This document shows positions 16,590-41,666 of a stretch of 48,253 nucleotides of DNA, piece by piece. The stretch covers positions 1 through 48,253 of the forward strand of contig DATDWM010000021.1 in the NCBI GenBank assembly GCA_036517375.1, written 5' to 3'. The stretch is from Minisyncoccota bacterium (GTDB lineage: Bacteria; Patescibacteriota; Minisyncoccia; Phycocordibacterales; UBA9973). The notes under the pieces were generated by a model. That model did no database searches, was not told the DNA's origin, and was given only the letters and a program-made list of their open reading frames with translations. Within the stretch, counting starts at the first letter, position 1, and each line of letters begins with the position of its first letter. The translations under genes were made by a program, and so were the position numbers.

Positions 16590-17951
16590 ATGGCCAAAGA
16601 TTTTTTCCAAGACATGATAAAAATGAAGTCGGAACTCCGTAAAGAAATGGAGCAAAAAGAGGCTTCCAAAATGAACGCCCGCGAAGTAAGGGAATTTAAA
16701 GATGCTGGTCGGGAGGTCAGAGAGAATCGAAGTACAAGGCAGGAGGTATTAGAAGAACAGGTTCTACAGCCGGCTACTGCGCATACTAAAGTTTCTAGGA
16801 AAAAAGAAAGTAAAAGAAGGAAACCACGATACTCGCTTTGGCTGGTGGCGGCTGTTTCGGTGGTGTTTCTATTTTTTGCTGTTTCATATTTACTAGCTCG
16901 AGCTTCCATCACCATAAATCCTAAAACAAAAGACGTAGCCTTTAATCAAAATTTAGTCGCCGTGAAGGGAGCTAGCGCGGAGGGCAGCCTATCCTTCGAC
17001 GTGATAGAACTCTCTGGCGAAGAAAATAAAGTTGTTCAAGGTGGGGCGGTTGCGGATACCTTGATTGCCGCCCGAGGTACAGTATTGATTTACAATAGTT
17101 ACAGTACTGCTACTCAAAGGTTAGATATTAATACTAGGCTCGAAGGCTCTAATGGTAAAATGTATAAGACCGAGAAGGCGGTAGTGGTTCCAGGCATGAA
17201 GGGTACTACGCCAGGATCTGTTGAAGTAGGAATCTATGCTGCGGAAGCTGGAGAAGCCTCGAACAGCGAGCCTCTGGATTTTCAAGTCTTTGGTTTCAAA
17301 GGAACTTCCAAGTATTCCAAATTCTACGCTCGTTCCAAGGGAGTTATAACCGGTGGTATCAAGGGTAAGGTAAGTATTATCCCAGAAGCCAAGATGGCTA
17401 TCATAGTTAATGACATGAGGGCCATTCTGGAAGAGAAGCTCCTTGCCAAAGCGACTGGGCTCATTCCTCCTGGCTCGGTGCTCTTTAAGGATTCAATTTT
17501 TCTAAACATTGAAAGTCAGAATTTCGACTTCGCAAGTGGTAGTGAACAAGTTCCAGTAACTGTGAAAGGCACTTTCTATGGCTTCATCCTTGATGAAAAG
17601 GAACTTACAAAAAAAATTACGGAAAGTTCCATGCCCGACTACGATGGTAGCGAGGTATATATTTCAAATCTCGAGAGTCTAAGCTTTACCTTTTTAGAAA
17701 AAACAGGACCATCGATCAATGATGTCCAAAATATTAGTTTTAATTTATCTGGCAATCCGAAGGTAGTATGGCGGTTCGATGTGGATAAACTAATAGGGGA
17801 ATTGGCCGGGGGGAGTAAGAGTAATTTCAATCAAATATTATCTAAATATCCAAACGTAGTCTCTGCAGACGTAGTGCTCACGCCTCTCTGGAGGAGGTCA
17901 TTTCCCGGGGATGAAAAGAACATTCAAGTATTGGTAAATTATCCGGAGTAA
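16590..17951 (+). CDS. Single-pass membrane protein, unknown function
   Basis: Charged N-terminus, one TM helix (YSLWLVAAVSVVFLFFAVSYLLA), and a ~340-aa beta-rich ectodomain. Tightly follows the actin-like gene. Confidence 0.55.
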   Translation: MAKDFFQDMIKMKSELRKEMEQKEASKMNAREVREFKDAGREVRENRSTRQEVLEEQVLQPATAHTKVSRKKESKRRKPRYSLWLVAAVSVVFLFFAVSYLLARASITINPKTKDVAFNQNLVAVKGASAEGSLSFDVIELSGEENKVVQGGAVADTLIAARGTVLIYNSYSTATQRLDINTRLEGSNGKMYKTEKAVVVPGMKGTTPGSVEVGIYAAEAGEASNSEPLDFQVFGFKGTSKYSKFYARSKGVITGGIKGKVSIIPEAKMAIIVNDMRAILEEKLLAKATGLIPPGSVLFKDSIFLNIESQNFDFASGSEQVPVTVKGTFYGFILDEKELTKKITESSMPDYDGSEVYISNLESLSFTFLEKTGPSINDVQNISFNLSGNPKVVWRFDVDKLIGELAGGSKSNFNQILSKYPNVVSADVVLTPLWRRSFPGDEKNIQVLVNYPE

Positions 17952-22223: not shown

Positions 22224-22348
22224 GGTTTCGTGCAAGAGAAAATTTCCGGTGCGAGCTTGCGAGCCGGAAATAGGAGGGGATACGTGCACTGACCACGACC
22301 CACAAAATACCCCTAGAAATGGGGATTTTTTTGTGCTAAAGTATGAAT

Positions 22349-22972
22349 ATGAAAGATGAAGATGAACAAAAGCAGCCTGAAACTACAGAGTCGGAAGCGG
22401 AGTTGAGCCCAGTAGGTGATTCTACTGAATCAGACGAAGTCGTGGAATTTGAATTCAACGATGACGGTGAGGAAGACTTAAAGAAAACCCTAAAGAAGCT
22501 CCGCGCGGATTTAAAGCAGGTGAAGAAGGAAAAAGAAGAATATCTCCTCGGCTGGCAGAAGGAGCGAGCGGAGTTTGCTAATTATAAAAAAGAAGAGGAT
22601 GCTCGAAAGGCGATGTTTAGTGAAGCCATGCGCGAGAGGATTCTTACTCGATTCTTAACGGTGATGGATAGTTTCAACATGGCTTTTACCAACAAGGAAG
22701 CCTGGGAGAAGGTAGATCCAAACTGGCGCAAAGGAGTGGAATATATTTATTCCCAAATGGGAGGAATCTTCGAAGAGTACGGGGTGAAAGCCATCGGCGA
22801 AGTGGGAGACACCTTTGATCCCAATATTCATGAATCCATAGACCTAATTCCAACTGATAAAAAAGAAGACGATCATAAAATAGCTACAGTGATCCAGAAA
22901 GGCTACAAGCTAGGCGAGCGTGTCATCCGTCCAGCGAGGGTGAATGTATATGAATACAAAGGAGCAGAATAA
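22349..22972 (+). CDS. grpE: Nucleotide exchange factor GrpE
   Basis: Acidic N-terminus and the GrpE core (RAEFANYKKEEDARK...VIQKGYKLGERVIRPARVNV). TGcTAAAGT (22334-22342) lies 6 nt before ATG 22349. An in-frame ATG at 22343 is the alternative start. Confidence 0.88.
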   Translation: MKDEDEQKQPETTESEAELSPVGDSTESDEVVEFEFNDDGEEDLKKTLKKLRADLKQVKKEKEEYLLGWQKERAEFANYKKEEDARKAMFSEAMRERILTRFLTVMDSFNMAFTNKEAWEKVDPNWRKGVEYIYSQMGGIFEEYGVKAIGEVGDTFDPNIHESIDLIPTDKKEDDHKIATVIQKGYKLGERVIRPARVNVYEYKGAE

Positions 22973-24674
22973 AAATTGCCAGAACTGTAAACAAAACTTC
23001 ACGGTAGAACCGGAAGATTTTAATTTCTACGAAAAAATAAAAGTTCCAGCTCCGACTTGGTGCCCGGAGTGTAGATTCCAGCGAAGGATGAGTTGGCGTA
23101 ATGACTGGCATTTGTTTCGTAAAAAAGATGCTCGTACTGGCGAAGAGATTTTTTCATTTTTACCTGAGGAAAGCCCAGTGAAGATTTACGATAGAGATTA
23201 TTGGATCTCCGATGCGTGGGACCCCACTCGATTTGGCCGGGATTTTGATTTTACCAGGCCTTTTTTTGAACAGTTCAAGGAGTTACTTTATGAAGTACCC
23301 CTGCCTTCTCATTCAATGATAAATATAAGTAATTGTAAATATTGCACTAATGCTACAGGCATTAAAAATTGTTATTTAGTTCGGGGCGCAGGTTATACCG
23401 AAGACTCCGCGTATCTGATATGGGATCAGTATTCTAAGCTATGTTTTGATAGTCATATGACTAGTCGATGTGAATTATCTTATGGAAACGTTAATACGTC
23501 TAATTGCTATAAAACATTTTTTTCAGTTGATTGTGAAAGTTGCCAAGAAATGATTTTATCTAAAGATTGTGTTGCTTGTAATAGTTGTATTGCTTCCATA
23601 GGTCTTCGCAATAAGTCTTATTGCATTTTTAATAAACAATACACCAAAGAAGAGTATCAGAAGAAAATCATTGAATTAAATTTAGGGTCTAACGAAAGTT
23701 TTCAATCACTGAAAGCGGAAGCATATAAACACTGGCTTAAATATCCACAAAAATTTATGTATGGACGTCAAAACGTCGCAGTCTCCGGGGATTATATTTT
23801 TGAGTCAAAGAACGCAAAACACTGTTATAGAATAAGGGGGGTGGAAGATAGTAAATTTGTTCAAAATATTTTAATTGGACCAGTTCGAGATACTTACGAT
23901 GTCTCTAATTATGGAGAAAATATAGAACTTAGTTATGAATGTCTGGTTGCGGGCATCGGTGTGTCTAACGTTAAATTTAGTTTCCAAACCTATCCCAATG
24001 TAAGAAACTTAACCTATTGCATATTTTCTAGTAATGCTTTGGATTTATTTGGTTGTATTGGATTAAAGAAAAAACAGTATTGTATTTTAAATAAACAATA
24101 CTCTAAAGAAGAGTATAAAAGACTTGTGTCTAAAATAATTGAACATATGAAAAAAAACGGGGAGTATGGGGAATTTTTCCCATCCTCACTTTCGCCTTTC
24201 CCATATGAGGTAACGGCTGCAAATGAATTTTTCCCACTCACTGAAGAAGAGGCAAAGGCTAGAGGTTTCTTGTGGTACAACATCGAAAGACAAAATTATA
24301 AAATTACTTTAAATCCGGAAGATATTCCAGATGATATAAAAAATATCGATAAAGAGATTCTTGGTGAAGTTATTGGATGCGCAGATCGGGAATCTTGTGA
24401 GCATGAATGTACAGGAGCTTTTCGGGTGATAGAGGCTGAGCTTGATTTTTGTAAAAGAATGAACATCCCCCTACCTCGTCTTTGCACTAATTGCCGTCAC
24501 TACGAACGTTTATCATTAAGAAATTCACCAAGTTTTTACCATCGTGCTTGTATGTGTGATAAGAATCATACACATCATGAAGGCAAGTGTGAAGCTGAAT
24601 TCGAGACCTCATATGCTCCCGATAGGCCAGAAATAGTCTATTGCGAAAAGTGTTATCAGCAGGAAATATACTAA
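22944..24674 (+). CDS. Cys-rich multi-zinc-ribbon protein, paralog B0 (576 aa)
   Basis: The start overlaps the grpE 3' end by 29 nt. N-terminal ribbon CQNC-x24-CPEC; two internal repeats ending GL(R/K)xKxYCIxNKQY(T/S)KEEY; a second ribbon; terminal C-x17-CEKC. Paralog of 30506-32251. Confidence 0.8.
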   Translation: MYMNTKEQNKNCQNCKQNFTVEPEDFNFYEKIKVPAPTWCPECRFQRRMSWRNDWHLFRKKDARTGEEIFSFLPEESPVKIYDRDYWISDAWDPTRFGRDFDFTRPFFEQFKELLYEVPLPSHSMINISNCKYCTNATGIKNCYLVRGAGYTEDSAYLIWDQYSKLCFDSHMTSRCELSYGNVNTSNCYKTFFSVDCESCQEMILSKDCVACNSCIASIGLRNKSYCIFNKQYTKEEYQKKIIELNLGSNESFQSLKAEAYKHWLKYPQKFMYGRQNVAVSGDYIFESKNAKHCYRIRGVEDSKFVQNILIGPVRDTYDVSNYGENIELSYECLVAGIGVSNVKFSFQTYPNVRNLTYCIFSSNALDLFGCIGLKKKQYCILNKQYSKEEYKRLVSKIIEHMKKNGEYGEFFPSSLSPFPYEVTAANEFFPLTEEEAKARGFLWYNIERQNYKITLNPEDIPDDIKNIDKEILGEVIGCADRESCEHECTGAFRVIEAELDFCKRMNIPLPRLCTNCRHYERLSLRNSPSFYHRACMCDKNHTHHEGKCEAEFETSYAPDRPEIVYCEKCYQQEIY

Positions 24675-24720: not shown

Positions 24721-25239
24721 TTATTTGCCGAAAGTTTGCAATAAAACTTTAGCGGTTTCTTCATCTACGAACTCGGTGACTATTACTATCATCTCAGTCG
24801 TGAATCCTAAATCCTTTTTGATATTTATAAACAGGTGCTCGTATGGATGAGGGGAGATCCAGACGGAATTTTTCAGGCAGACGAAGTTTGCTTTCTTTAA
24901 GAGGTAGCGCAGGCTCTCGCGTTCACTCTTTCTTTGCTCTGGCAGGTCGAGCAAAATTATTCTCCAGAATCCGTCCCACTTAGTATTCACGAGTGTAGTT
25001 TCACTATCTAGCATTAGACTGTTTATTTTCTTCTTGCCTTCCCGGGTCAAGCGGGCATAGTCATTCTGCCCAGAGTATATGCTTTCTATTAACCCAGCCT
25101 CTTGTAGGCCCTTTAAGGACCTTGTAACGGCATATTTGTCTTGACCCAGATCGTTTTGTAGGTCAGGGAGGGAAATGGCTGATTTTTCGGCGAGCTTTTT
25201 TAGAATTTTCTTTCCGTATGTATTGTTTTGGCTTGACAT
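24721..25239 (-). CDS. Winged-HTH regulator with PaaX/Cas2-like C-terminal domain
   Basis: N-terminal wHTH (LPDLQNDLGQDKYAVTRSLKGLQEAGLIES). C-terminal WDGFWRIILLDLPEQRKSERESLRYLLKKANFVCLKNSVWISPHP resembles a PaaX-type effector domain. Confidence 0.5.
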   Translation of the reverse strand: MSSQNNTYGKKILKKLAEKSAISLPDLQNDLGQDKYAVTRSLKGLQEAGLIESIYSGQNDYARLTREGKKKINSLMLDSETTLVNTKWDGFWRIILLDLPEQRKSERESLRYLLKKANFVCLKNSVWISPHPYEHLFINIKKDLGFTTEMIVIVTEFVDEETAKVLLQTFGK

Positions 25240-25277
25240 GGATATAGGGTATCATATATACTAACTTTATACAAGTT

Positions 25278-25293
25278 TTTCGCGTTCGCGAAA
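25278..25293. promoter_or_regulatory. Operator candidate TTTCGCG-TT-CGCGAAA in the regulator/dnaK divergent region
   Basis: 7-bp inverted arms. It is the only CG-rich element in an otherwise AT-rich 108-bp intergenic region. Confidence 0.45.
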
Positions 25294-25347
25294 TATATGT
25301 AAATTACAAAATAATCATTTAATTATAAGCATAATTTAAAAAAATAT

Positions 25348-27282
25348 ATGTCAAAAATCATAGGAATAGACTTAGGTACAACAAATTCAGCGGTAGCAGT
25401 TATTGAGGGTGGCGCACCGAAGATTATTGAGAATACAGAAGGTAACCGCACCACGCCTTCAATAGTCTCTATTGCAAAAAATGGGGACAGGTTGGTAGGG
25501 CTTCTGGCCAAGAGGCAGGCGGTGACGAATCCTGAAAATACTGTTTATGGTATCAAGCGCTTCATGGGGCACAATTTTGACGATCCAGAAGTACAAAAGG
25601 ATTTGAAAAATGCATCTTTTAAAATTCAAAAGGGCGCAACAGGTGGAGTGGAAGTAAAAATAGGCGATAAGTGGATGCGTCCAGAAGAAGTTTCCGCCAT
25701 GATCCTTTCTAAAATTAAAACGGATGTAGAAGCAAAGCTTGGCGAGAAGATTACTGAAGCAGTCATCACTGTACCAGCATACTTCAACGATGCGCAAAGA
25801 AAGGCAACCAAAGACGCGGGTATGATCGCGGGCCTCGATGTAAAGCGTATTATCAACGAGCCAACTGCGGCTGCACTTGCGTACGGATTTAATAAAAAGA
25901 AAAATGAAAAAATAGTTGTCTACGACTTCGGAGGCGGAACTTTCGACGTGTCAGTTCTTGAGATTGGGGACGATGTTATCGAAGTTAAGTCTACTGATGG
26001 GGACAGTCACTTGGGTGGCCGCGACATTGACCACAAGATCATTGGCTGGATTGCAGAAGAATTTAAAAAGACGTCCGGCGTGGATGTACGAGCGGACAAG
26101 CTCGCTCTTCAGCGCTTAGACGAAGCGGCAGAGAAGGCTAAGATCGAGCTCTCCACCGCAGTTGAAACTGAAATAAATATTCCATTCATTACTTCTACGG
26201 CGGAAGGTCCACAGCACTTACTGCTCAAGATGACTCGTGCCCAGCTGGAATCCATTGCAGACGAATATATTTCTCGCTCTATTGAGATCACCAAGCGTGC
26301 GATGGCGGCTTCCGGATTCAAGATGGAAGACATGAATGAAATAATCATGGTAGGTGGCCAGACCAGAATGCCGAAGATTGTGGAAGAAGTTAAGAAAGTT
26401 TTCGGCAAGACTCCGAACCTCTCCATTAACCCTGACGAAGTGGTGGCCTTGGGTGCTGCTGTTCAGGCGGGAGTATTGCAGGGGGATGTGCGTGATGTTC
26501 TACTACTCGACGTTATACCGCTATCACTTGGAATAGAAACTCTCGGAGGCGTTGCGACAAAATTAGTAGAAAGAAATACAACTATTCCGTCCAGCAAGTC
26601 GCAGACATTTTCTACTGCGGCGGACAATCAGACTTCCGTAGAAATACACATAGTCCAAGGTGAGCGTCCTATGGCCTCCGACAACAAATCCCTCGGGCGG
26701 TTTGTGCTTGACGGCGTGCCTCCAGCGCCTCGTGGTATGCCTCAGATCGAGGTGGCCTTTGATGTGGATGCCAACGGAATATTGAATGTGACTGCTAAGG
26801 ATAAAGCTTCAGGTAAAACTCAATCCATAAAGATCGAAGCTTCTTCAGGACTTAAGGAAGATGAAATTAAAAAGATGCAGGCGGATGCTGAACTTCATGC
26901 GGAAGAAGATAAAAAGAAAAAGGAAGGTGTGGACATTCGAAATACCGCTGAAATGATTATTTACACTGCAGAAAAAGCATTAAAAGATAATGAAGCCAAG
27001 ATTCCTGCGGAATTGAAAGAGAGCGTGAATCTAAAAATCGCCGCCCTCCGAGGCGCGAAAGATTTACCTGCCGGAGCGGGCGGTAATGACATAGAAACAA
27101 TAAAGAAAGCGACCGAAGAACTCTCAAATGAAATGTCTAAAATAGGGGAAGCGGTAAGTAAGAGTTCAGCTGCCTCTGGCGCGCCTGGAGATGCTGAAAC
27201 TCCACCCACAGGCGACGCTGCCAAAGCCACCGATGCGGAATTCAAAGAAACTCCGCCGGAAGGGGAAGAACCGAAAGCGTAA
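25348..27282 (+). CDS. dnaK: Chaperone DnaK (Hsp70)
   Basis: [20 protein letters not shown] and the full Hsp70 architecture. Size 644 aa. Confidence 0.97.
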
Positions 27283-27287
27283 ATTAG

Positions 27288-27316
27288 AAAAAGCCTCTTA
27301 AGAGGCTTTTTCTTTT
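27288..27316 (+). terminator. Intrinsic terminator after dnaK
   Basis: AAGCCTC-TTAA-GAGGCTT stem with flanking A and T runs. Confidence 0.75.
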
Positions 27317-27345: not shown

Positions 27346-27681
27346 ATGTCCACGCAAAAGGAAACAGTTGAATTCATAATGGCTAAACTAGGGCGGGCCC
27401 CGAGGTTTTCGGTGCGGGCTATGTTTGGTGAATATGCTTTGTATGCTGACGGCAAAGTTGTGGGACTCATATGCAATGATCAGCTTTATGTAAAAATATT
27501 ACCAAAGTCAAGGGAGCTCGAAGATATTTGTGAAAAGGATGAAGCGTATCCGGGCTCTAGGAAGTTTTATGTGGTGGAAGAAGGGGAATTATCAAAATTA
27601 AAAAATCTGCCAGACATACTTTTAAATATTGCAAAGTCCTTGCCTGCTCCGAAAAAGAAAAAACCTAAAATAAAGAAATAG
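27346..27681 (+). CDS. TfoX N-terminal-domain protein with Lys-rich tail
   Basis: MFGEYALYADGKVVGLICNDQLYVK is typical of TfoX_N. TATAAT (27331-27336) lies 9 nt before the ATG. Confidence 0.6.
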   Translation: MSTQKETVEFIMAKLGRAPRFSVRAMFGEYALYADGKVVGLICNDQLYVKILPKSRELEDICEKDEAYPGSRKFYVVEEGELSKLKNLPDILLNIAKSLPAPKKKKPKIKK

Positions 27682-27685
27682 AAAT

Positions 27686-27716
27686 AAAGGCCCCGAGTGG
27701 GGGCTTTTAATTTTTT
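27686..27716 (+). terminator. Intrinsic terminator (copy 1 of a near-identical pair)
   Basis: AAAGGCCCC-GAGTG-GGGGCTTTTAATTTT. Confidence 0.75.
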
Positions 27717-27796
27717 ATATATTAGGTATAATACTAAATGTAAGTGATCTTCAAAATGCTCGCGTATCCAACCGCGAGAGAAAGGGGGTAAAATCC

Positions 27797-28036
27797 ATGA
27801 ACAGACAGAAGAAAAGCGGCCGCTTTTCGTTCCCCGTCAAGAACGAGGACTTCAGAGTCTCGAGCTACAGCGATCCAGGTGGCATCATCAAGACCTGCGT
27901 CGAAGTGGCGGTGAAGCCTGAAGGTGTTGCCATCCGGGACAGCAAGAACCCGAACAGTCCCGTACTCTACTTCACGCACGAAGAGATGGCGGCCTTCAAG
28001 CAAGGCCTCGTGAGCGGCGAGTTCGACAGGGCCTGA
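27797..28036 (+). CDS. DUF397-domain protein (79 aa) on GC-rich island 2
   Basis: Hallmarks CVEVA...VAIRDSKNP..PVLYFT..E..AF..G...GEFD. RBS AAAGGGGGT lies 7 nt upstream. 63 of 79 codons end in G/C (hand count). Confidence 0.8.
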   Translation: MNRQKKSGRFSFPVKNEDFRVSSYSDPGGIIKTCVEVAVKPEGVAIRDSKNPNSPVLYFTHEEMAAFKQGLVSGEFDRA

Positions 28037-28088
28037 AGAGTGTATGCTTATCTCGTAAGTCGAGTACGACAATCTCGGCACCCACGTA

Positions 28089-28137
28089 ACGGACCGTACA
28101 GCTGCAAGCTGTCCGGTCCGTGAGTACTTCTACTCAC
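28089..28137 (+). terminator. Two overlapping GC-rich hairpins downstream of the DUF397 gene (no clear U tract)
   Basis: ACGGACCGTACAGC-TGCAA-GCTGTCCGGTCCGT (13 bp, 1 mismatch), then GTGAGTA-CTTC-TACTCAC. Confidence 0.4.
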
Positions 28138-28215: not shown

Positions 28216-28371
28216 ATGCAAAATTATCAAAAAGGAAATACCAATACTGTCTTGATTGTAGTCGTACTTTTGCTTCTTGTTGGTTTCGGAGTATGGTGGT
28301 TCACCATGCGCAACGAAGCAGTAGATAATGATGGAGGAGTAAACATACAGCTAGGTGGGGATAGTCAATAG
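28216..28371 (+). CDS. Small single-pass membrane protein (51 aa)
   Basis: MQNYQKGNTNTVLIVVVLLLLVGFGVWWF... Start chosen at the first Met before the TM helix; the ORF track begins at 28120 inside the upstream hairpin. Confidence 0.45.
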   Translation: MQNYQKGNTNTVLIVVVLLLLVGFGVWWFTMRNEAVDNDGGVNIQLGGDSQ

Positions 28372-28398
28372 TAGGAGTTAAGTTTATGTTCTAAAAAT

Positions 28399-28428
28399 TA
28401 AAGGCCCCTTAGTGGGGCTTTTAATTTT
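28399..28428 (+). terminator. Intrinsic terminator (copy 2 of the near-identical pair)
   Basis: AAAGGCCCC-TTAGT-GGGGCTTTTAATTTT. Confidence 0.75.
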
Positions 28429-28454: not shown

Positions 28455-30506
28455 ATGGATCTGCCGCAAATACCTATCAATAGAGAGATAACTTATCTGG
28501 GCATTACTACCTATCGGGACAAGAACCAACTCTTCGGCATCAAGCGCAAGGACAGGCGTCAGCATGTTTATATTTTAGGAAAGTCTGGTACTGGTAAGTC
28601 CGTGCTCATGTTCAACATGATCATTCAAAATATTATAAACGGTGAAGGCGTTTGCGTAGTGGACCCGCACGGGGAGCTAGTCGAGGGTGTACTCTCTGCT
28701 ATTCCGCCGCACCGCATGAAGGACGTAATTTATTTTAATCCCGCGGATACGGACTTCCACATTGGATTTAACGTGCTAGAGCTAGTGGATCCGCAGTACA
28801 AGCACTTAGTGGCTTCTGGACTCATGGGAATCTTTACGAAGATCTGGGCCAATGCCTGGTCCGCCCGAATGGAATATATTTTAAATAACTGTATTTTAGC
28901 CTTGCTCGATACTCCTGGCACCACACTCCTAGGTATTCCTCGAATGCTGGTGGATAAGGATTACCGCCAGAAAATAATTTCTAATTTGAAAGATCCGGTG
29001 ATAAAGGCCTTCTGGGTGCATGAGTATGAAGCCTGGCAGGATAAATTTCGAAATGAAGCCATCGCGCCGATTCAAAACAAAGTAGGTCAATTCCTCTCTA
29101 CTTCAATCATTCGAAACGTGGTGGGCCAGTCCAAGAGCACCATCAACATTTTCGACATTATGAACGAGAGCAAGATTTTCCTAGTTAACGTCTCTAAGGG
29201 GCGCATCGGGGAGGACAACTCTGGGCTACTAGGCGGAATGATAATTACTAAAGTCCAGCTCGCAGCTATGGAGCGTGTGCGTATACCAGAAGAAATTCGA
29301 AAGGACTTCTATTTATATGTGGACGAATTCCAGAACTTCGTGACGGACGCCTTTGCGGGGATTTTATCTGAGGCTCGTAAGTATCGCTTGAACCTGACGG
29401 TGGCGCACCAGTACACGGCTCAGCTTATCTCCGACAAGAGCTCAGCTGTGCGTGATGCTGTCTTCGGCAACGTGGGTACGATGATAATTTTCCGAGTGGG
29501 TGCAGACGATGCGGACTTTTTAGAAAAAGAGTTCGAGCCGGAATTTACTCCGCAAGACATTGTGAACTTGCCGAACTATAAAATATACCTGAAGCTCATG
29601 ATAGAAGGCGTTACGTCTAGGCCTTTTTCCGCTAAGACTCTACCGGCGATGGTAAAGTCTGGCAATAAAGAAGTGGAGGACGAAGTTATCCGTTCTTCGC
29701 GTGAGTTGTACTGTCTGCCGAAAGACGTTATTGAGCGAGAAATAAACAACTGGAGCGGGATGTCTTTAGGCAACGAGAGTGACGTCACGAGTAGTAGTGT
29801 GGAGAGATTTAAAGCAGTGTGTTCGAATTGTGATAAGGAAACCACCGTACCCTTTGCGCCTACGCCTGGCCGGCCGGTGTACTGCAAGGAATGCATGGAG
29901 AAAATAAAATCCGGAGAACTTAAGGTGAAAGGATCTGTCAAAGAAATCAAAATGGATGAAGGCAGATTTTACAAACCTTTGGCAGACTTAGGAATAGAAT
30001 TTGCGCAGAAGGATGCCGACGGAGAGAAGATAGTGCGAATGCCAATGCCAGATAAACCGAAAGTGGTAAGTAGCGTAATGAATAAATTTAAGCCGCCAGT
30101 CAAGAAAGAAAATTTTGCGCTCCGGGATATTTTAAATAAAATTACGAGCGCGGGTGGGACCCCGCCGCCTTCAGTAGCGAAAGTAGTTACTCCGGTGCTT
30201 GCTCCAGCACCTGCGGCTATTTCCCTGGGAGATTTGAAAAATAAAGTTAAAACAGAAATCCCAAAGGATCGCGCGGCAAGCCATGCAGATATGAATAAGC
30301 TTAAAGATTTAATTCAAGAAAAAACCTTATCTACTTCTCCCGTGGCCCCGCCCGCTGTGCAAGCCCAAGCTCAAGTAGAAACTCCACCGCCACCAAACAT
30401 TCCAACTCCTCAAGCTCCTCCTAAAACTCCGCCCTCCGCGAGCAACGGGACGAGTAAAGTGAAAGAAGTCCCAGAAGATGTATTGAAGAAGATACTCGAA
30501 GAGTAA
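28455..30506 (+). CDS. TraD/VirD4-like (FtsK-HerA superfamily) P-loop NTPase A1 with CxxC-x17-CxxC ribbon and Pro-rich tail
   Basis: Walker A GKSGTGKS, Walker B FYLYVDEFQNF, and SEARKYRLNLTVAHQY. C-terminal CSNC-DKETTVPFAPTPGRPVY-CKEC, then a low-complexity P/A/Q tail. Confidence 0.75.
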   Translation: MDLPQIPINREITYLGITTYRDKNQLFGIKRKDRRQHVYILGKSGTGKSVLMFNMIIQNIINGEGVCVVDPHGELVEGVLSAIPPHRMKDVIYFNPADTDFHIGFNVLELVDPQYKHLVASGLMGIFTKIWANAWSARMEYILNNCILALLDTPGTTLLGIPRMLVDKDYRQKIISNLKDPVIKAFWVHEYEAWQDKFRNEAIAPIQNKVGQFLSTSIIRNVVGQSKSTINIFDIMNESKIFLVNVSKGRIGEDNSGLLGGMIITKVQLAAMERVRIPEEIRKDFYLYVDEFQNFVTDAFAGILSEARKYRLNLTVAHQYTAQLISDKSSAVRDAVFGNVGTMIIFRVGADDADFLEKEFEPEFTPQDIVNLPNYKIYLKLMIEGVTSRPFSAKTLPAMVKSGNKEVEDEVIRSSRELYCLPKDVIEREINNWSGMSLGNESDVTSSSVERFKAVCSNCDKETTVPFAPTPGRPVYCKECMEKIKSGELKVKGSVKEIKMDEGRFYKPLADLGIEFAQKDADGEKIVRMPMPDKPKVVSSVMNKFKPPVKKENFALRDILNKITSAGGTPPPSVAKVVTPVLAPAPAAISLGDLKNKVKTEIPKDRAASHADMNKLKDLIQEKTLSTSPVAPPAVQAQAQVETPPPPNIPTPQAPPKTPPSASNGTSKVKEVPEDVLKKILEE

Positions 30507-32251
30507 TGAAACAGGAAATAAAAAACTGTCAGAATTGCAAACTAGACTTCACGATAGAACCGGAGGATTTTAATTTCTACGAAAAAATAAAGGTTCCGCC
30601 TCCGACATTTTGTCCACAGTGTCGGGTTATGCGCAGATTAACTTGGCGCAACGAGCGTTCCTTGTATCACAATGTTTGCGCCCTTTCGGGCAAGAAAATA
30701 ATTTCCATGTTTTCACCAGAAACTAAACTAGTGGTTTACGATCGAGATATTTGGTGGAGCGACAAATGGGATCCATTTGATTATGGGCAAGACTACAACT
30801 TCTCTAAGCCATTTTTCCAGCAATTTAAGGAGCTCCTAGAAAGGGTGCCACTTGCCAACTTAGGTAATACCAATATGGTAAATAGTGATTATGCCAATCA
30901 TAGTTTGGATTGCCGTAATTGTTATTTGATATATGCTTCCACATGGAATGAAAATGTATCTTACTCTACAGGAGTAATGCGTACGAAAGACTCCATGGAT
31001 CTTTATAAAGTTCAGAATTCAGAACGATGCTATGAAGATGTTTTAAATGCTAGCCTTTTCAACACTCATTTTAGTTACGATAGTGATGAATGTATTGATT
31101 CCATGTTCCTAACTTCATGCCTTGGGCTAAATAACTGTTTGGGTTGCGTGAACTTACGTCATAAAAAATACTGTATTTTTAATCAGCAGTATTCAAAAGA
31201 AGATTACGAAAGAGTCCGAGAAACCTATGACTTAGGTAGCTACATAGGTCTGGAGAAATTTAAGCCGGAGTATGCAGAATTTCTAAGTAAACAATTTAGG
31301 AGATATGCTTTTATCTACAAATCTATAAATGTTACAGGAGACAATGTTATGAACTCTAGAAACTGTAAAATGGTATTTGATATTTTTGAAGAAGCTGAGA
31401 ACTCTAAATACCTTTATCATGGCGGATACGGAATTAAAGAAAGCTATGATGGATATGGAACCGGCCTCAGAACAGAATTTTTATATGAAAGCGTGGATAC
31501 AGGTCTAGATGGTTCAAGGCAACTCTTCTCCATTCTTAATCATAGCTGTTTAGAAACTCACTATACTTATATGTGTTATGGTGCCAAATTCTTATTTGGT
31601 TGCGTGGGAGTTCGAGACCATGATTACTCTATTTTAAATAAAAAATATACTAGAGAAGAGTACAAGGAACTTCTACCTAAGGTCGTACAGCACATGAATG
31701 ACATGCCATATGTTGATGAGCAGGGTAGAGTCTATAAATACGGAGAGTTCTTCCCGATGGAACTTTCACCATTTGCTTATAATGAAACCATTTTGCAAGA
31801 ATATTACCCATTAGATAAAAAAAGAGTAAAAGAATATGGTTTAAAATTAAAAGAAAAAGAGCACAGAGATTATAAAATTGAAGTAAAAACAGATGACTTA
31901 CCGGACCATATCAAGGACACTCCAGAGAGTATTGTGGGTAAAGTAATAGAATGCATACACAAAGGTGAGTGTGAAGAGCAGTGCACAGAAGCATTTAAAA
32001 TCAGGCCGGAAGAATTGCAATTTCTTAAAAAAATAAATGTAGCTCTGCCCCGCCTTTGTCCCAATTGTAGACATTTTGCAAGATTAAAACAAAGAAACCC
32101 TATGAAACTTTGGCACCGTCAGTGCATGTGCGACAAGACTAGTCATCAGCACGGAGAAGCAAGGTGCCAAGTGGAATTTGAAACAAGCTATGCTCCGGAG
32201 AGGCCGGAGATAATTTATTGTGAAAAGTGTTATCAGAAAGAGGTGTATTAA
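30506..32251 (+). CDS. Cys-rich multi-zinc-ribbon protein, paralog B1 (581 aa)
   Basis: The ATG shares one base with the A1 stop (TAATG). Same architecture as 22944-24674; ends ...C-x17-CEKCYQKEVY. Confidence 0.8.
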   Translation: MKQEIKNCQNCKLDFTIEPEDFNFYEKIKVPPPTFCPQCRVMRRLTWRNERSLYHNVCALSGKKIISMFSPETKLVVYDRDIWWSDKWDPFDYGQDYNFSKPFFQQFKELLERVPLANLGNTNMVNSDYANHSLDCRNCYLIYASTWNENVSYSTGVMRTKDSMDLYKVQNSERCYEDVLNASLFNTHFSYDSDECIDSMFLTSCLGLNNCLGCVNLRHKKYCIFNQQYSKEDYERVRETYDLGSYIGLEKFKPEYAEFLSKQFRRYAFIYKSINVTGDNVMNSRNCKMVFDIFEEAENSKYLYHGGYGIKESYDGYGTGLRTEFLYESVDTGLDGSRQLFSILNHSCLETHYTYMCYGAKFLFGCVGVRDHDYSILNKKYTREEYKELLPKVVQHMNDMPYVDEQGRVYKYGEFFPMELSPFAYNETILQEYYPLDKKRVKEYGLKLKEKEHRDYKIEVKTDDLPDHIKDTPESIVGKVIECIHKGECEEQCTEAFKIRPEELQFLKKINVALPRLCPNCRHFARLKQRNPMKLWHRQCMCDKTSHQHGEARCQVEFETSYAPERPEIIYCEKCYQKEVY

Positions 32252-32254
32252 ATA

Positions 32255-32263
32255 TGTTATAAT
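32255..32263 (+). promoter_or_regulatory. Extended -10 TGtTATAAT, 11 nt before ATG 32275
   Basis: Perfect TGnTATAAT in the 23-bp B1/A2 spacer. No SD. Confidence 0.5.
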
Positions 32264-32274
32264 ATAACGACGTT

Positions 32275-33741
32275 ATGCCTAAGCCAAATCGAGTCCAGAT
32301 AATAAAATACGCTCCGCCACCACCAGAACTTCCAGTTTTTGGGAAAGTAAAACCCGAGGACGTTTCTTTTATTGGCCGGACGAATTACGTGGCATCGCTC
32401 GAAGAAAAGAAATTTATTTTCGGCATAAAGCGCGTGGACCGTCGCAGACACCTTTATATCATCGGTAAGTCCGGAGTCGGGAAGACCAAGCTTCTAGAGC
32501 TTTTCATCCGCCAAGACGTGAGCTACGGACATGGATTGTGCCTAATTGACCCGCACGGAGACGTGATAGATGCCATGCTTGACTACATACCGAGGGAGCG
32601 CATAGAAGACGTGTGTATCATTGATCCCTCCGACATTGATTTCCCAGCTTCTTTCAATCCTCTCGCGAACGTAGACCCCATGTTTAAATTCCAGCTCACT
32701 CAGGGGCTCATAGAAGTCTTCCAGAAACAGTTCGGCGCCAACTGGACTCCGCGCCTGGAGCACGTTTTCCGCTTTACGTGTCTGGCGCTCCTCGACTATC
32801 CGCATGCTACTATGCGCGGCATGATTTCAATGCTGACTGATCGAAACTATCGCCAGAAGGTAGTAGAGTACATTACAGACGACATGGTAAAAAGATTCTT
32901 CGCTATCGAATTCGCCGACTGGTCCGAGAAGTTCGACACTGATGCTATCATTCCATTGGTGAACAAGCTCGGACAATTCCTCTCGGATCCGCTTCTCCGT
33001 AACATCTTCGGACAGAAAGAAAACAAAATAGACGTAAGTAAACTCATGAACGAAAAGAAAATAATTTTCATCAATCTCTCGAAGGGTCGCCTAGGGGAGG
33101 AGAATTCGTCTTTCTTGGGTTCTATGTTTCTGACTAAAATAAAACAAGCTGGTATGGAGCGCGCGGCCATTCCAGAGAAAGATCGAGTAGATTTTTATCT
33201 TTATGTGGACGAGTTTCAGAACGTGGTAACGCAGACATTTGAAAATATTTTATCCGAAGCTCGCAAATACGGACTCAACTTAACCATCGCGCATCAGTAC
33301 GTGGGACAAATTCTTCAGAAGGTGCATCAGGCGGTATTAGGAAACGTGGGCTCTGTTATAACCTTCCGGGTGGGTGGGGAAGACGCAGTAAAATTGAAGC
33401 CAGAATTCTCCCCAGTCTTCGACGTGAAAGATATGATCAACCTAGCGGTAACGGAATTCTATATTAAAATGACTATTGATGGAGAGTCTTATGATCCATT
33501 TTCCGCAGAGACACTTCGAGTTCTGCCACCACCTCATGCTTCGTACCGGGAGGAAGTAATTGCTTCCTCACGCCAAAAATATTCTATCCCGAAGGATGCG
33601 GCCGCGAAGCTTATTGCTGAAGAAGAATCAACTATTATCCGCAGCGCGGAGGAGAAGTCTATCATTGAAGGTAAAGGCAAGAAAGGGCAAGATTCAGAGG
33701 ACAAAAAAGAGGATAGCCTTGAAGCGGAACCTATGATATAA
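32275..33741 (+). CDS. TraD/VirD4-like P-loop NTPase A2 (paralog of A1, no zinc ribbon)
   Basis: Walker A GKSGVGKT, Walker B FYLYVDEFQNV, and SEARKYGLNLTIAHQY. Acidic/Lys-rich C-terminus. Confidence 0.75.
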   Translation: MPKPNRVQIIKYAPPPPELPVFGKVKPEDVSFIGRTNYVASLEEKKFIFGIKRVDRRRHLYIIGKSGVGKTKLLELFIRQDVSYGHGLCLIDPHGDVIDAMLDYIPRERIEDVCIIDPSDIDFPASFNPLANVDPMFKFQLTQGLIEVFQKQFGANWTPRLEHVFRFTCLALLDYPHATMRGMISMLTDRNYRQKVVEYITDDMVKRFFAIEFADWSEKFDTDAIIPLVNKLGQFLSDPLLRNIFGQKENKIDVSKLMNEKKIIFINLSKGRLGEENSSFLGSMFLTKIKQAGMERAAIPEKDRVDFYLYVDEFQNVVTQTFENILSEARKYGLNLTIAHQYVGQILQKVHQAVLGNVGSVITFRVGGEDAVKLKPEFSPVFDVKDMINLAVTEFYIKMTIDGESYDPFSAETLRVLPPPHASYREEVIASSRQKYSIPKDAAAKLIAEEESTIIRSAEEKSIIEGKGKKGQDSEDKKEDSLEAEPMI

Positions 33742-33742
33742 T
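33734..33742 (+). promoter_or_regulatory. Extended -10 TGaTATAAT, 6 nt before the dnaJ ATG
   Basis: Lies in the last codons of A2. AGGTAG follows, then ATG 33749. Confidence 0.55.
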
Positions 33743-34823: not shown

Positions 34824-35417
34824 ATGATTCCGGATAAAATAATTTTCTTTGCACTATCACTCAACCTGCTTGGGCATATCTTATATATTCGCAGTGTAAT
34901 TCGAGGACAGGCGAAACCAAATCTTGCATCTTGGATTCCGTGGATGCTGGCACCACTTGTTGGTGTTTTTTTTCAGCTGAAGGCTGGAGCTGGGCTTTCT
35001 GTCTTACCTGTCTTTATGGCAGGCTTTGGGCCGATGATTATCATAATCGCTGCTCTTTTGTCTAAAAACTCTCTTTGGAAATTGAAAACTATAGATTTAT
35101 TTTGCTTTGGTTTTTCTATCTTTGCTTTAGTACTTTATGTTTTAACTCACAACTTAGCTTTATCAATTATTTTTGCAATACTTAGCGACGCCCTCGCTTT
35201 TATTCCAACGTATATCAAAGCCTGGAAATTTCCAGAATCAGAATCTGTGCATGCTTATTCCTGGGCTATTCTCTCAAATATTATTGGGTTACTAATTATA
35301 AGAGAATGGATTTTTACCATTTATTCTTTCGGAATTTATTTAGTAGTGGCAAACGGAATCTTTGTTTTGATTTTATACAGAAGAAAGCTTTTCTCTAAAT
35401 TTCTCCGCAATTATTGA
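34824..35417 (+). CDS. Polytopic membrane protein, unknown function
   Basis: About six hydrophobic helices. No family recognised. Confidence 0.5.
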   Translation: MIPDKIIFFALSLNLLGHILYIRSVIRGQAKPNLASWIPWMLAPLVGVFFQLKAGAGLSVLPVFMAGFGPMIIIIAALLSKNSLWKLKTIDLFCFGFSIFALVLYVLTHNLALSIIFAILSDALAFIPTYIKAWKFPESESVHAYSWAILSNIIGLLIIREWIFTIYSFGIYLVVANGIFVLILYRRKLFSKFLRNY

Positions 35418-40574: not shown

Positions 40575-40988
40575 ATGAGTGAAAAGGCTCCAGGTAAATA
40601 TCCTCTTACTCCTGATGAGCTAGCTATCTTGCATAAACAAGATCAAGCAAAAATAGAAGAAGCTAGTAAAAAATTAAATGAGTTAGCTCAGTCTATGGGT
40701 TATACTCCTGTCTCAACATTTGATGACCTAGGTTTGACTAGCGAAGAGATTGCTCAAATTCATTATAGATCTTTAACAGAAAGAAGACCTACAGCTCGAT
40801 ATTATGTAGCAGATCGAAAAGATGGAGGTAAAGCTAAATTAGTTGCTCTGCCAAGAACTGATGGGTGCTATTTTGCAAGTTTTTTCTCTCCAAGTGGTCA
40901 CGGAACTAATCATGATTTTTCTTTATGGGAAATGAAGGGGAACATGGAGAACTATTTAAATAGAGGAAAGGACGGTAACTTAATTTAA
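40575..40988 (+). CDS. Hypothetical 137-aa protein
   Basis: Occupies the position where rpmA usually follows rplU. No family recognised. Confidence 0.5.
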   Translation: MSEKAPGKYPLTPDELAILHKQDQAKIEEASKKLNELAQSMGYTPVSTFDDLGLTSEEIAQIHYRSLTERRPTARYYVADRKDGGKAKLVALPRTDGCYFASFFSPSGHGTNHDFSLWEMKGNMENYLNRGKDGNLI

Positions 40989-41033: not shown

Positions 41034-41666
41034 TTACTCGTTAAAGTTTAACCATTCAAAAAGCTCGTTCTGGTGATCAGTGGGATTCTTGAAATATAGA
41101 GGAAATTCTATGGGATTCGTGACTTCAAACTTGTTGTCTAAGTATTCTTTCAAACTCGAGTATTGATATTGAAATATATACTCTAGAAGCTTAGTAACAT
41201 TTCTATCTGCTTTATCTCTCCAATTTTTATCTATTATTTTGGCTGGGTTCAGGTGTATGTAGGAATAAAGATATTTTAAATAATTGTCTTTTTCTAGGTG
41301 AGTTGATTTAAATACGCCCTCATATAATTTACCAGTTCTTTTATATTTTTTATTAAAGTACATTGAGTATCCAGTCAACAACTTACGCATGTATGTAGAT
41401 ATACCACTTTCAACTTTTTCACGGACAAGAATGTGAAAATGGTTTGACATCAAACAGTATGCCCCAATATCAATTATTGTTTCTCCACGATCAAAATTTT
41501 CATCAATATGTCTTAGTTCAATACTCTTCTTGCTGTTGCAGATGTACATTAAAAACAAAAAATGTCGATAGTCTTTTTTATCTAAAAATATAATTCTTTT
41601 TTCTGTGCCACGGTTATACAAATGATAGTATTCGCCGGTTGCAAAAGATTGTTTTCGTAAAGCCAT
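41034..41666 (-). CDS. HUH Y1 tyrosine transposase (REP-associated RayT / IS200-like)
   Basis: YHLYNRG N-terminus, HUH motif NHFHILV, and the catalytic Tyr region YSYIHLNPAK. Confidence 0.8.
   Translation of the reverse strand: MALRKQSFATGEYYHLYNRGTEKRIIFLDKKDYRHFLFLMYICNSKKSIELRHIDENFDRGETIIDIGAYCLMSNHFHILVREKVESGISTYMRKLLTGYSMYFNKKYKRTGKLYEGVFKSTHLEKDNYLKYLYSYIHLNPAKIIDKNWRDKADRNVTKLLEYIFQYQYSSLKEYLDNKFEVTNPIEFPLYFKNPTDHQNELFEWLNFNE

Follow-up and report, generated by a model that had tools for sequence, protein, structure and literature searches.

Classical type IV coupling proteins (T4CPs) carry an anchor of two transmembrane (TM) helices. In the Dot/Icm system of Legionella (DotL and its adaptors) and the VirD4-effector system of Xanthomonas, both of them diderm systems encoded together with channel genes, the T4CP recruits varied clients through a conserved module or through adaptors bound to its tail. 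Here we describe relatives of these motors in a 48,253-nt stretch of DNA from a Minisyncoccota bacterium (Patescibacteriota; GenBank assembly GCA_036517375.1, contig DATDWM010000021.1), the whole of which is called the window below. Its subject is a three-gene cassette at 28455-33741, in which the genes of two paralogous T4CP-type ATPases, A1 and A2, flank that of a multi-zinc-finger protein, B1.

A large part of bacterial diversity belongs to the Patescibacteria, which mostly live attached to other cells. Their type IV secretion system (T4SS) is the first shown to be essential to its own bearer, and its cargo is not known (PMC12857230). Orphan T4CPs of these bacteria are already known as well: Quinonero-Coronel et al. 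(2025; PMC12102498) count 5,713 VirD4-like homologues in 2,918 Patescibacteria genomes, only 148 of them near virB4, and raise exaptation as a possibility. The resulting figure of about two per genome fits the A1/A2 pair. In conjugative systems, according to the same source, the T4CP gene typically adjoins that of its substrate, the relaxase. Here it is B that holds this position and, as the orphan motors flank a member of the B family, we regard that family as the best current candidate for the substrate of the motor.

The ATPases A1 and A2 and the proposed membrane partner D

Five genes of the window carry the argument:

28455-30506, + strand: A1, 683 amino acids (aa), soluble T4CP-type ATPase
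30506-32251, + strand: B1, 581 aa, cytoplasmic multi-zinc-finger protein
32275-33741, + strand: A2, 488 aa, soluble T4CP-type ATPase
7492-8916, + strand: D, 474 aa, two N-terminal TM segments; proposed membrane half of a split T4CP
22944-24674, + strand: B0, 576 aa, B-family paralogue

A1 and A2 are 45% identical over 430 residues (E=5e-136). The Walker A motif reads GKSGTGKS in A1 (aa 42-49, 28578-28601) and GKSGVGKT in A2 (aa 64-71); the Walker B string FYLYVDEFQN is found in both (A1 aa 285-294, 29307-29336; A2 aa 307-316), as is the block SEARKY.LNLT.AHQY. The Walker motifs do not vary in an alignment of 44 sequences. An earlier annotation of the window made without database searches, the sequence-only reading, had described the three open reading frames (ORFs), the paralogy of A1 and A2, these motifs, the zinc finger and Pro-rich tail of A1, and the base at 30506 that the A1 stop shares with the B1 start, all as we find them.

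Both ATPases score above the Pfam gathering cut-offs for TrwB_AAD_bind, T4SS-DNA_transf, DUF87 and TraG-D_C. The matches to T4SS-DNA_transf (30.2 and 28.7 bits against a cut-off of 20.1) identify a nucleotide-binding domain (NBD) of the FtsK/HerA class, and that to TrwB_AAD_bind over aa 32-349 (36.7 bits against 20.5) identifies the all-alpha domain; with this combination, A belongs to the T4CP superfamily. Owing to a shallow alignment, an AlphaFold2 (AF2) model of A1 residues 1-500 has a moderate predicted local distance difference test score (pLDDT) of 68, with a confident helical block at aa 113-237 and a poor region at 292-372, and it served for fold-family assignment only. Its best match in the Protein Data Bank (PDB) is TrwB, followed by DotL (6sz9) and Cagbeta (probability 1.0, template-modelling scores of about 0.33-0.51), with weaker matches to VirB4 and HerA. 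Pfam, NCBIfam and fold therefore agree on the T4CP-like character that had been read from the letters.

In A1, the NBD and all-alpha domain (aa 1-440) are followed by a zinc finger (aa 450-484) and a Pro/Lys-rich tail that carries conserved short motifs; A2 lacks the finger and its tail is acidic. The finger, CSNC-x17-CKEC (C456, C459, C477 and C480; 29802-29906), is of the treble-clef type and matches both TIGR04272 of NCBIfam (E=3e-15, 55.6 bits against a cut-off of 36) and Pfam zf_Tbcl_2 (PF23477; E=9e-15, 54.5 bits against 27). Purified Methanosarcina mazei proteins made of this CxxC-x17-CxxC domain bind zinc (PMC12704099). Public annotations of A orthologues read either 'type IV secretion system DNA-binding domain-containing protein' or 'CxxC-x17-CxxC domain-containing protein'. 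A1-type proteins of about 1,000 aa, in which the tail after the finger is far longer than that of the window's A1, are encoded in two of the related loci (labelled L with a number here) that we compared (L009, 8588-11587; L032, 17701-20736).

The cores of A1 orthologues are 84-92% identical. Those of A2 are 80-90% identical and, in a Nomurabacteria-like clade, their genes lie almost always directly upstream of dnaJ. In L001, the identities to the window's proteins are 91% for A1, 90% for DnaK, 86% for A2, 82% for DnaJ and 70% for the B1-like gene upstream of A2; in L031, they are 89% for A1 and 79% for DnaK. By these identities, A1 and A2 match DnaK in how well their cores are conserved.

A-like ATPases also occur on six putative viral or mobile contigs in IMG/VR (L080-L085). 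They are about 430 aa long, have 40-53% identity and lack the zinc finger; three of the six contigs have a G+C content (GC) of 0.57-0.58, and the A-like gene of L080 has an M23 peptidase, a PLD-like nuclease and a PD-(D/E)XK nuclease as neighbours. None of the six carries a B gene, and a search of the IMG/VR viral and mobile contigs for B found none.

Neither A1 nor A2 contains a hydrophobic window or TM segment, and the N-terminal anchor of a T4CP is thus missing from both. Clustering the ORFs of related loci revealed a family of proteins of about 450 aa, D, with two TM helices (hydrophobic windows at aa 6-42 and 41-76 of the window's D) and a domain of about 400 aa. In the window, D is encoded 20 kb upstream of A1 and A2, and it is 31% identical (E=5e-53) to the D genes found immediately before A2 or A1 in other loci. 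Homologues of D are all annotated 'hypothetical' and carry PF26449. A D-family gene lies directly upstream of A2 or A1 in L011, L014, L045, L061 and L076, and near B arrays in L018, L034, L037, L038 and L067.

In L013, D and A are fused in a single protein of 790 aa. Further fused D-A relatives include gp156 of Bacillus phage G and proteins of Bacillus plasmids, and the 824 profile positions of phrog_5156, a phage protein family, accommodate both halves: D aligns to 29-194 or 79-291, A1 to 386-807, and the L013 fusion to 88-807. On the Bacillus subtilis plasmid NRS6116_2, the fused homologue, a 913-aa 'DUF87' protein, aligns with A1 orthologues over residues 320-766 and with fused D-A over 82-761. 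Its gene is directly upstream of a replication-relaxation (relaxase-family) gene, which is followed by TcpD, TcpE and a large gene for an ATP-binding (VirB4-like) protein; a conjugative coupling protein is encoded in just such a position. Since the two occur as fusions, it is very probable that D and A act together. On these sequence comparisons, A1 and A2 are the soluble cytoplasmic half of a split T4CP of the monoderm type, with D as its proposed membrane half, and this explains why A1 and A2 have no membrane segment of their own. The anchor appears to be supplied in trans by D, through a contact that we infer from the fusions. The sequence-only reading, which knew nothing of D, had concluded that the locus is not a conventional conjugation or secretion locus, and this was premature. 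Since their own TM anchor and a linkage to channel or relaxase genes are both missing, we term A1 and A2 a split, duplicated and apparently exapted T4CP, not a conventional one.

The B family and its linkage to the ATPases

B1 opens with finger 1 (aa 8-39) and a degenerate finger 2 (58-82), continues with two repeats, R1 (119-262) and R2 (263-400), and a 'GEFFP' module (401-477), and closes with finger 3 (483-521) and finger 4 (540-575). The architecture of B is accordingly a pair of a finger and a CxxC-x17-CxxC-like finger, then R1, R2 and the GEFFP module, then a pair of a finger and a C-x17-CxxC finger. HHalign relates R1 (aa 130-241) to R2 (278-393) with a probability of 99.3% (E=2e-20) and the first ribbon (9-58) to the second (491-540) with 98.4% (E=9e-15), and the terminal C-x17-CxxC consists of C554, C572 and C575; the internal repeats, the two ribbons and the terminal motif noted earlier are all borne out. 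No signal peptide-like or TM segment is seen in B.

B0 is 41% identical to B1 over the full length (E=1e-164) and has no Pfam or NCBIfam match. B1 has no meaningful Pfam match even at E<=10, where only rows at E=4 and E=0.05 appear, far below cut-off, and none in NCBIfam, PADLOC, PHROGs or, by sequence, the PDB. The AF2 model of B1 (pLDDT 80, predicted template-modelling score 0.81) is confident at the termini and reaches about 50-70 in the central repeats, and for this reason we make no claim on the fold of the latter. Searched with Foldseek, the model finds no match in the PDB at E<=0.001, and among the viral models of BFVD only local matches the size of a zinc ribbon. By profiles, sequence and fold, B matches no described family or solved structure.

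B1, a giant zinc-ribbon protein in the sequence-only reading, is not a one-off partner: its family is both large and multi-copy. A database clustered at 90% identity yields more than 5,800 B matches; the source names among those listed are all 'hypothetical' and come from Nomurabacteria, Paceibacterota or 'Patescibacteria group'. A profile search of 1.84 billion representatives yields 4,546 clusters at 50% identity, 2,000 of them at E<1e-30. The 150 profile matches listed are all B-like and 428-625 aa long, mostly about 550-600 aa, and no differently built relative that might hint at function is among them. The family appears to be confined to Patescibacteria.

For the comparison of loci, we used 79 loci from GTDB genomes centred on B, with up to 10 kb on each side, and a set of A-centred loci not selected for B. 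The B-centred loci hold 223 B genes, each co-oriented with the neighbouring B genes; the largest tandem array, that of L039, has 12 copies within one locus of 22 kb. The 187 full-length paralogues have a median pairwise identity of 43%, a median of 34 cysteines and a median isoelectric point (pI) of 6.3. They are most conserved at the four finger positions, at the repeat ends (C.GC.NLR.K.YCIFN..Y.KEEY) and in the module YGEFFP..SPF.YNET, and most variable in the earlier parts of R1 and R2, with conserved termini on both sides. Finger 2 has an intact CxxC-x17-CxxC in about 44% of the paralogues, and the finger 4 spacing is kept in nearly all; in finger 2 of B1, only the first of the four cysteines survives. 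Fingers 1 and 3 have sub-threshold Pfam matches to zf_Tbcl, and fingers 2 and 4 to zf_Tbcl_2, the C-terminal finger of B1 scoring 13.3 bits (E=0.07) and cysteine-rich paralogues 14-19 bits (E~1e-3) against the cut-off of 27. When hidden Markov models (HMMs) of B fingers 2 and 4 were run against about 1,000 non-B ORFs, only the A1-type zinc finger matched.

An A gene is found within 10 kb in 29 of the 79 B-centred loci, where roughly 5% would be expected by chance (assuming a genome of about 0.8 Mb with two A genes), and in 15 of the 58 that have no Hsp70 gene. This is the enrichment that the sequence-only reading had asked for as a check. The B-centred sample is phylogenetically non-independent and biased towards relatives of B1, and the immediate-neighbour statistics, which are noisy from spurious small ORFs, were used qualitatively only. 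The recurrence of an ATPase and zinc-ribbon module, a prediction of the sequence-only reading, is nevertheless seen in many arrangements. The order dnaK-A1-Bn-A2-dnaJ characterizes the Nomurabacteria-like clade, and in L001-L003 positional orthologues of B1, with 65-70% identity, lie directly upstream of A2. Elsewhere we find A2-Bn-A1 (L009, L032, L076), D-A2-Bn (L014, L045, L061), D-A1-B5-A2-B4 (L011), Bn followed by the fused D-A gene (L013), and Bn-A2-B-A1 with A1 inverted (L018, L038). Metagenome-assembled genomes labelled Liptonbacteria, Staskawiczbacteria and otherwise have A1, A2, D and B together without a chaperone gene. In four of the five A-centred loci, the window included, the interval from A1 to A2 contains one to three B genes; the orders include dnaK-A1-B-methyltransferase-B-B-A2-dnaJ (L088), A1-ABC exporter-B-A2-dnaJ with no dnaK beside A1 (L091), and grpE-B-B-paaX-dnaK-A1-B-B-DUF5674-x-A2-dnaJ (L092). 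The A-B linkage is thus strong and outlasts rearrangement, but it is not obligatory.

The Hsp70 genes and the rest of the window

The cassette lies among the genes of the Hsp70 system and a few others:

22343-22972, + strand: grpE (Pfam GrpE, E=2e-37)
24721-25239, - strand: PaaX-like winged-helix regulator (Pfam PaaX_M, E=1.6e-19), divergent from dnaK
25348-27282, + strand: dnaK, 77-90% identical to relatives' genes with a Pfam HSP70 match
27286-27313: strong terminator-like hairpin after dnaK, from a terminator scan
27346-27681, + strand: TfoX_N gene (Pfam, E=4e-10)
27797-28036, + strand: GC-rich DUF397 gene (Pfam, E=2e-15)
28216-28371, + strand: ORF of a 51-aa membrane protein with one hydrophobic segment
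33749-34822, + strand: dnaJ, 50-82% identical to relatives' genes with DnaJ, DnaJ_C and DnaJ_CXXCXGXG Pfam matches
34824-35417, + strand: 197-aa multi-pass membrane protein, by its hydrophobic segments; last gene of the co-oriented run

The canonical contiguous order grpE-dnaK-dnaJ is not found in the window. The genes run grpE-B0-(PaaX-like, minus strand)-dnaK-spacer-A1-B1-A2-dnaJ-membrane protein, the start of B0 overlapping the last 29 nt of grpE, so that the Hsp70 genes are broken up twice, by B0 and the PaaX-like gene and again by the spacer and A1-B1-A2. From the end of dnaK (27282) to the start of dnaJ (33749) is 6.47 kb, in which the TfoX_N gene, the DUF397 gene and the small membrane ORF are present as the sequence-only reading had listed them. 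A gap of 23 nt separates B1 from A2, and one of 7 nt A2 from dnaJ. So short a gap makes co-transcription a simpler reading than a promoter of dnaJ's own, and the -10 box once proposed for dnaJ comes down to a mere TATAAT string (33737-33742) that spans the A2 stop 6 nt before the ATG; the promoter scan called nothing at the dnaJ start. Strong hairpins follow dnaK, tfoX and the small ORF, and the scan found no strong terminator between A1 and the membrane gene 3' of dnaJ. The run A1-B1-A2-dnaJ-membrane protein is therefore probably one transcript. As A1-B-A2 lies between dnaK and dnaJ, and B0 after grpE, both are probably co-expressed with the Hsp70 system.

Hsp70-system genes are present in 21 of the 79 B-centred loci. 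A B gene directly 3' of grpE is also found in L005, L031, L042, L049 and L092, and the 197-aa membrane protein is kept after dnaJ, or after dnaJ and a B gene, in 9 B-centred loci as well as in L091 and L093. The order dnaK-A1...A2-dnaJ occurs only in genomes in which both ATPases have at least 80% identity to their counterparts in the window, and the nesting is a trait of one Nomurabacteria-like clade; in more distant genomes, dnaK-dnaJ or grpE-dnaK are still adjacent (L007, L044), with the A and B genes elsewhere. Of the chaperone link suggested in the sequence-only reading, then, the recurrent company of Hsp70 genes stands, but it does not extend to the other lineages, in which A1, A2 and B are linked without chaperones.

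The PaaX-like regulator is found at the same spot in at least ten related loci. Among the promoter-like sites of the region, the best is TTGACA-18-TATACT (25233-25262), immediately 5' of dnaK; after it comes an imperfect inverted repeat, TACAAGTTTTTCGCG/CGCGAAATATATGTA (25270-25301). Regulator and repeat together may substitute for the HrcA/CIRCE control of heat-shock genes.

The spacer between dnaK and A1 is specific to this window and lies outside the conserved module: not one of the 79 related loci has TfoX, DUF397 or the small ORF, and the spacers of L001, L092 and L093 consist of unrelated small genes. TfoX, taken in the sequence-only reading as a pointer to DNA handling, was for this reason dropped as a functional clue. 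The DUF397 islet (27734-28120) has a GC of 0.545, against 0.41 for the window, and the relatives of its gene in a plasmid collection are all from actinomycetes (Streptomyces, Kitasatospora and Nocardia among them; 37-46% identity), which suggests that the gene was acquired horizontally, possibly from a host lineage. Nearly identical terminator hairpins (AAAGGCCCC...GGGGCTTTTAATTTT) follow tfoX (27685-27709) and the 51-aa ORF (28394-28428) and flank the islet on both sides, as if it were a cassette inserted into, or duplicated with, a terminator.

Other genes occupy the A1...A2 gap in other genomes. A fused ABC exporter of about 590-600 aa (ABC_membrane and ABC_tran) recurs there or beside the PaaX-like gene (L001, 8128-9924; L003, 4489-6291; L051, 1363-3132; L091, 12231-14033; also L031, L042 and L050), and an S-adenosylmethionine (SAM) methyltransferase (L088) and a DUF5674 gene (L092) have been found in the gap as well. 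The window has none of the three.

The remaining genes of the window are housekeeping genes, among them clpB, typA, rpoA, dnaB, recR and those of ribosomal proteins and aminoacyl-tRNA synthetases. The sole mobile-element gene seen is an ORF for an IS200-like Y1 transposase (41034-41666, - strand), which neighbours recR and an unannotated 137-aa ORF (40575-40988) just after the L21 gene. Two large ORFs without a Pfam match, at 13849-15363 (504 aa) and 16590-17951 (453 aa), sit between alaS, an FtsA-like gene and ribosomal protein genes.

Proposed function, rival explanations and known systems

The reading that we favour, tentatively and without calling it probable, is that of a coupling ATPase made up of D and A1/A2, with the B proteins as its clients, either cargo or adaptors. 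D would anchor a ring of A1 and A2 at the membrane, and the ring would recognise the invariant terminal finger modules of B; a finger apparently of the same type as B's is borne on the flexible tail of A1. With ATP hydrolysis, B would then be engaged, as cargo itself or as an adaptor with something bound to its variable surface, and the most likely destination would be the Patescibacterial T4SS encoded elsewhere in the genome. The Hsp70 system may keep such cysteine-rich proteins competent, which would be a secondary link. The mechanism is modelled on two precedents, the pairing of T4CP and relaxase genes on the Bacillus plasmid and the T4CPs that recruit many effectors through a shared module; we infer the contacts of A with D and with B, as well as any translocation and any connection to a T4SS. 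A more specific version, in which B is the client repertoire of the Patescibacterial T4SS, recruited by a core split coupling ATPase, seems to us doubtful. If it were true, specificity towards host cells would be encoded in B's variable repeat surfaces.

Several observations weigh against coupling of B to a secretion motor. Stably zinc-bound, folded proteins are awkward T4SS cargo. As the sequence-only reading had noted for the window, T4SS genes are missing: neither the 38 window ORFs that were scanned with Pfam nor the 79 B-centred loci, searched by BLAST with plasmid VirB4, relaxase and TcpE queries and with the A-core HMM, yielded a gene for VirB4, VirB6, a relaxase, a pilin or another channel part, and the loci yielded no TcpE. 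The likeness between the A1 and B fingers is weak, with E=1e-4 to 1e-2 in a small database and an HHalign probability of 36%. The GC of B0 (0.358) and B1 (0.368) is below that of A1, A2 and dnaK (0.46 each), which is in keeping with a different evolutionary regime. In at least half of the B-centred loci, among them the 7-12-copy arrays of L030, L039 and L035, the sequence of up to 10 kb on either side has no A gene. Conversely, L093 has the order grpE-paaX-dnaK-x-x-A1-A2-dnaJ with no B gene in 22 kb, and A therefore does not need a neighbouring B. In Southlakia, the sole patescibacterium tested genetically, the T4CP homologue is dispensable, unlike the T4SS, which is essential (PMC12102498).

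Some of the same facts can be arranged differently. If A1 and A2 formed, with DnaK, DnaJ and GrpE, an intracellular unfoldase or handling ring for cysteine-rich zinc proteins such as B, acting for example in their metal loading or quality control, no secretion would be involved. The tight and co-oriented dnaK-A1...A2-dnaJ arrangement with no strong terminator in its A1-dnaJ run, the B genes after grpE in several genomes, the 21 loci with Hsp70 genes, and the DnaK-like conservation and identical GC of A1, A2 and dnaK would all fit. We nonetheless consider such a ring unlikely, since the Hsp70 linkage is confined to one clade and A1, A2, D and B occur elsewhere without a chaperone gene, since even L091 has no dnaK beside A1, and since the two-TM partner D and the fused D-A forms favour a membrane-bound machine; moreover, no T4CP is known to act as a cytosolic chaperone. 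A membrane-bound machine might instead move DNA. T4CPs and their FtsK/HerA relatives translocate DNA, and D with A1/A2 could be a DNA pump for export, import or segregation, with B as zinc-finger nucleic-acid binders in place of a relaxosome. The fold matches of A1, the relaxase gene beside the homologous plasmid T4CP and the basic finger modules of B (pI 8.4-8.7, with Arg-rich helices after the CxxC motifs) point this way. Relaxases are almost absent from Patescibacteria (PMC12102498), so that such a pump would need another DNA-binding partner. Whole B proteins are, however, acidic to neutral, Foldseek against the PDB and BFVD found no nuclease, relaxase or recombinase fold in B, the window's only hint of DNA uptake, TfoX_N, is not conserved, and a need for 10-20 diverging paralogues would go unexplained. 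We hold a DNA pump to be improbable.

It may also be that A and B are not coupled at all, and that B simply proliferates by tandem duplication in the permissive co-oriented gaps of well-expressed operons, namely downstream of grpE, in the interval from A1 to A2, and downstream of dnaJ. That interval holds anything from 0 to 7 B copies, and the ABC exporter, methyltransferase and DUF5674 genes land in the same gap; the B-less L093, the many B-centred loci without A, the low GC of B relative to its neighbours and the uniform orientation of all 223 B genes with the adjacent B, as from tandem duplication, are in keeping with this. Against it, the A-B linkage recurs in at least five gene orders, also in lineages without Hsp70 context, and D, A1 and A2 are each found beside B arrays independently; moreover, A1 and B appear to have a finger type in common, and B1 has stable positional orthologues. 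Adjacency as a by-product of this kind we likewise rate as having little prospect of being right. Least of all do we expect a conflict or defence system, in which a HerA/FtsK-like ATPase would work with diversifying B sensors in the manner of HerA-based anti-phage systems. A1 and A2 do have weak PADLOC matches to mad8 (E=1e-13) and HerA (E=1e-7), and B is multi-copy with variable central surfaces. Yet the ATPases have a fixed place in the core genome and an identity of about 90% between genomes, unlike the contents of defence islands; no nuclease, Sir2 or other effector partner accompanies them and they do not qualify as HerA or MADS-type members; B has no PADLOC match and is absent from IMG/VR; and the mobile A-like genes come without B.

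With the conjugative T4CPs, such as TrwB of R388, VirD4 and the NRS6116_2 protein, the window's ATPases share the FtsK/HerA-type NBD with an inserted all-alpha domain, as well as a downstream gene that encodes the presumed client, the relaxase on NRS6116_2 and B here. They differ in being split into D and an ATPase half, which is moreover duplicated, in their chromosomal and fixed core position with about 90% conservation and no relaxase, VirB4 or channel gene nearby, and in the CxxC-x17-CxxC finger and long low-complexity tail that A1 has gained. DotL is among the fold matches of A1, linking it to Dot/Icm, but B has no sequence or fold relation to known effectors or adaptors. In comparison with the M. 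mazei CxxC-x17-CxxC proteins (TIGR04272/zf_Tbcl_2), the A1 finger is a clear member, whereas B fingers 2 and 4 have the same spacing in many paralogues and score 13-19 bits against the cut-off of 27. Even if B should prove unrelated to secretion, it is a large uncharacterised family that takes up a noticeable share of some very small genomes.

The closest described relatives are the orphan VirD4-like T4CPs of Patescibacteria (Quinonero-Coronel et al., 2025), and A1 and A2 are almost certainly the same genes. The passages of that paper that were searched do not mention a split membrane partner, the pairing of A1 and A2, their nesting among Hsp70 genes or the B family, and our literature searches found no description of the B family or the D/A split, nor of the A1/A2 pairing, its DnaK-level conservation, its place in a chaperone operon or its tie to B. 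To the orphan T4CPs, the window adds D, which accounts for the soluble look of the ATPases, and an A1/A2 pair that evolves as slowly as Hsp70; together with the B family, these give the questions of what the Patescibacterial T4SS carries and what the orphan T4CPs do a concrete and testable shape.

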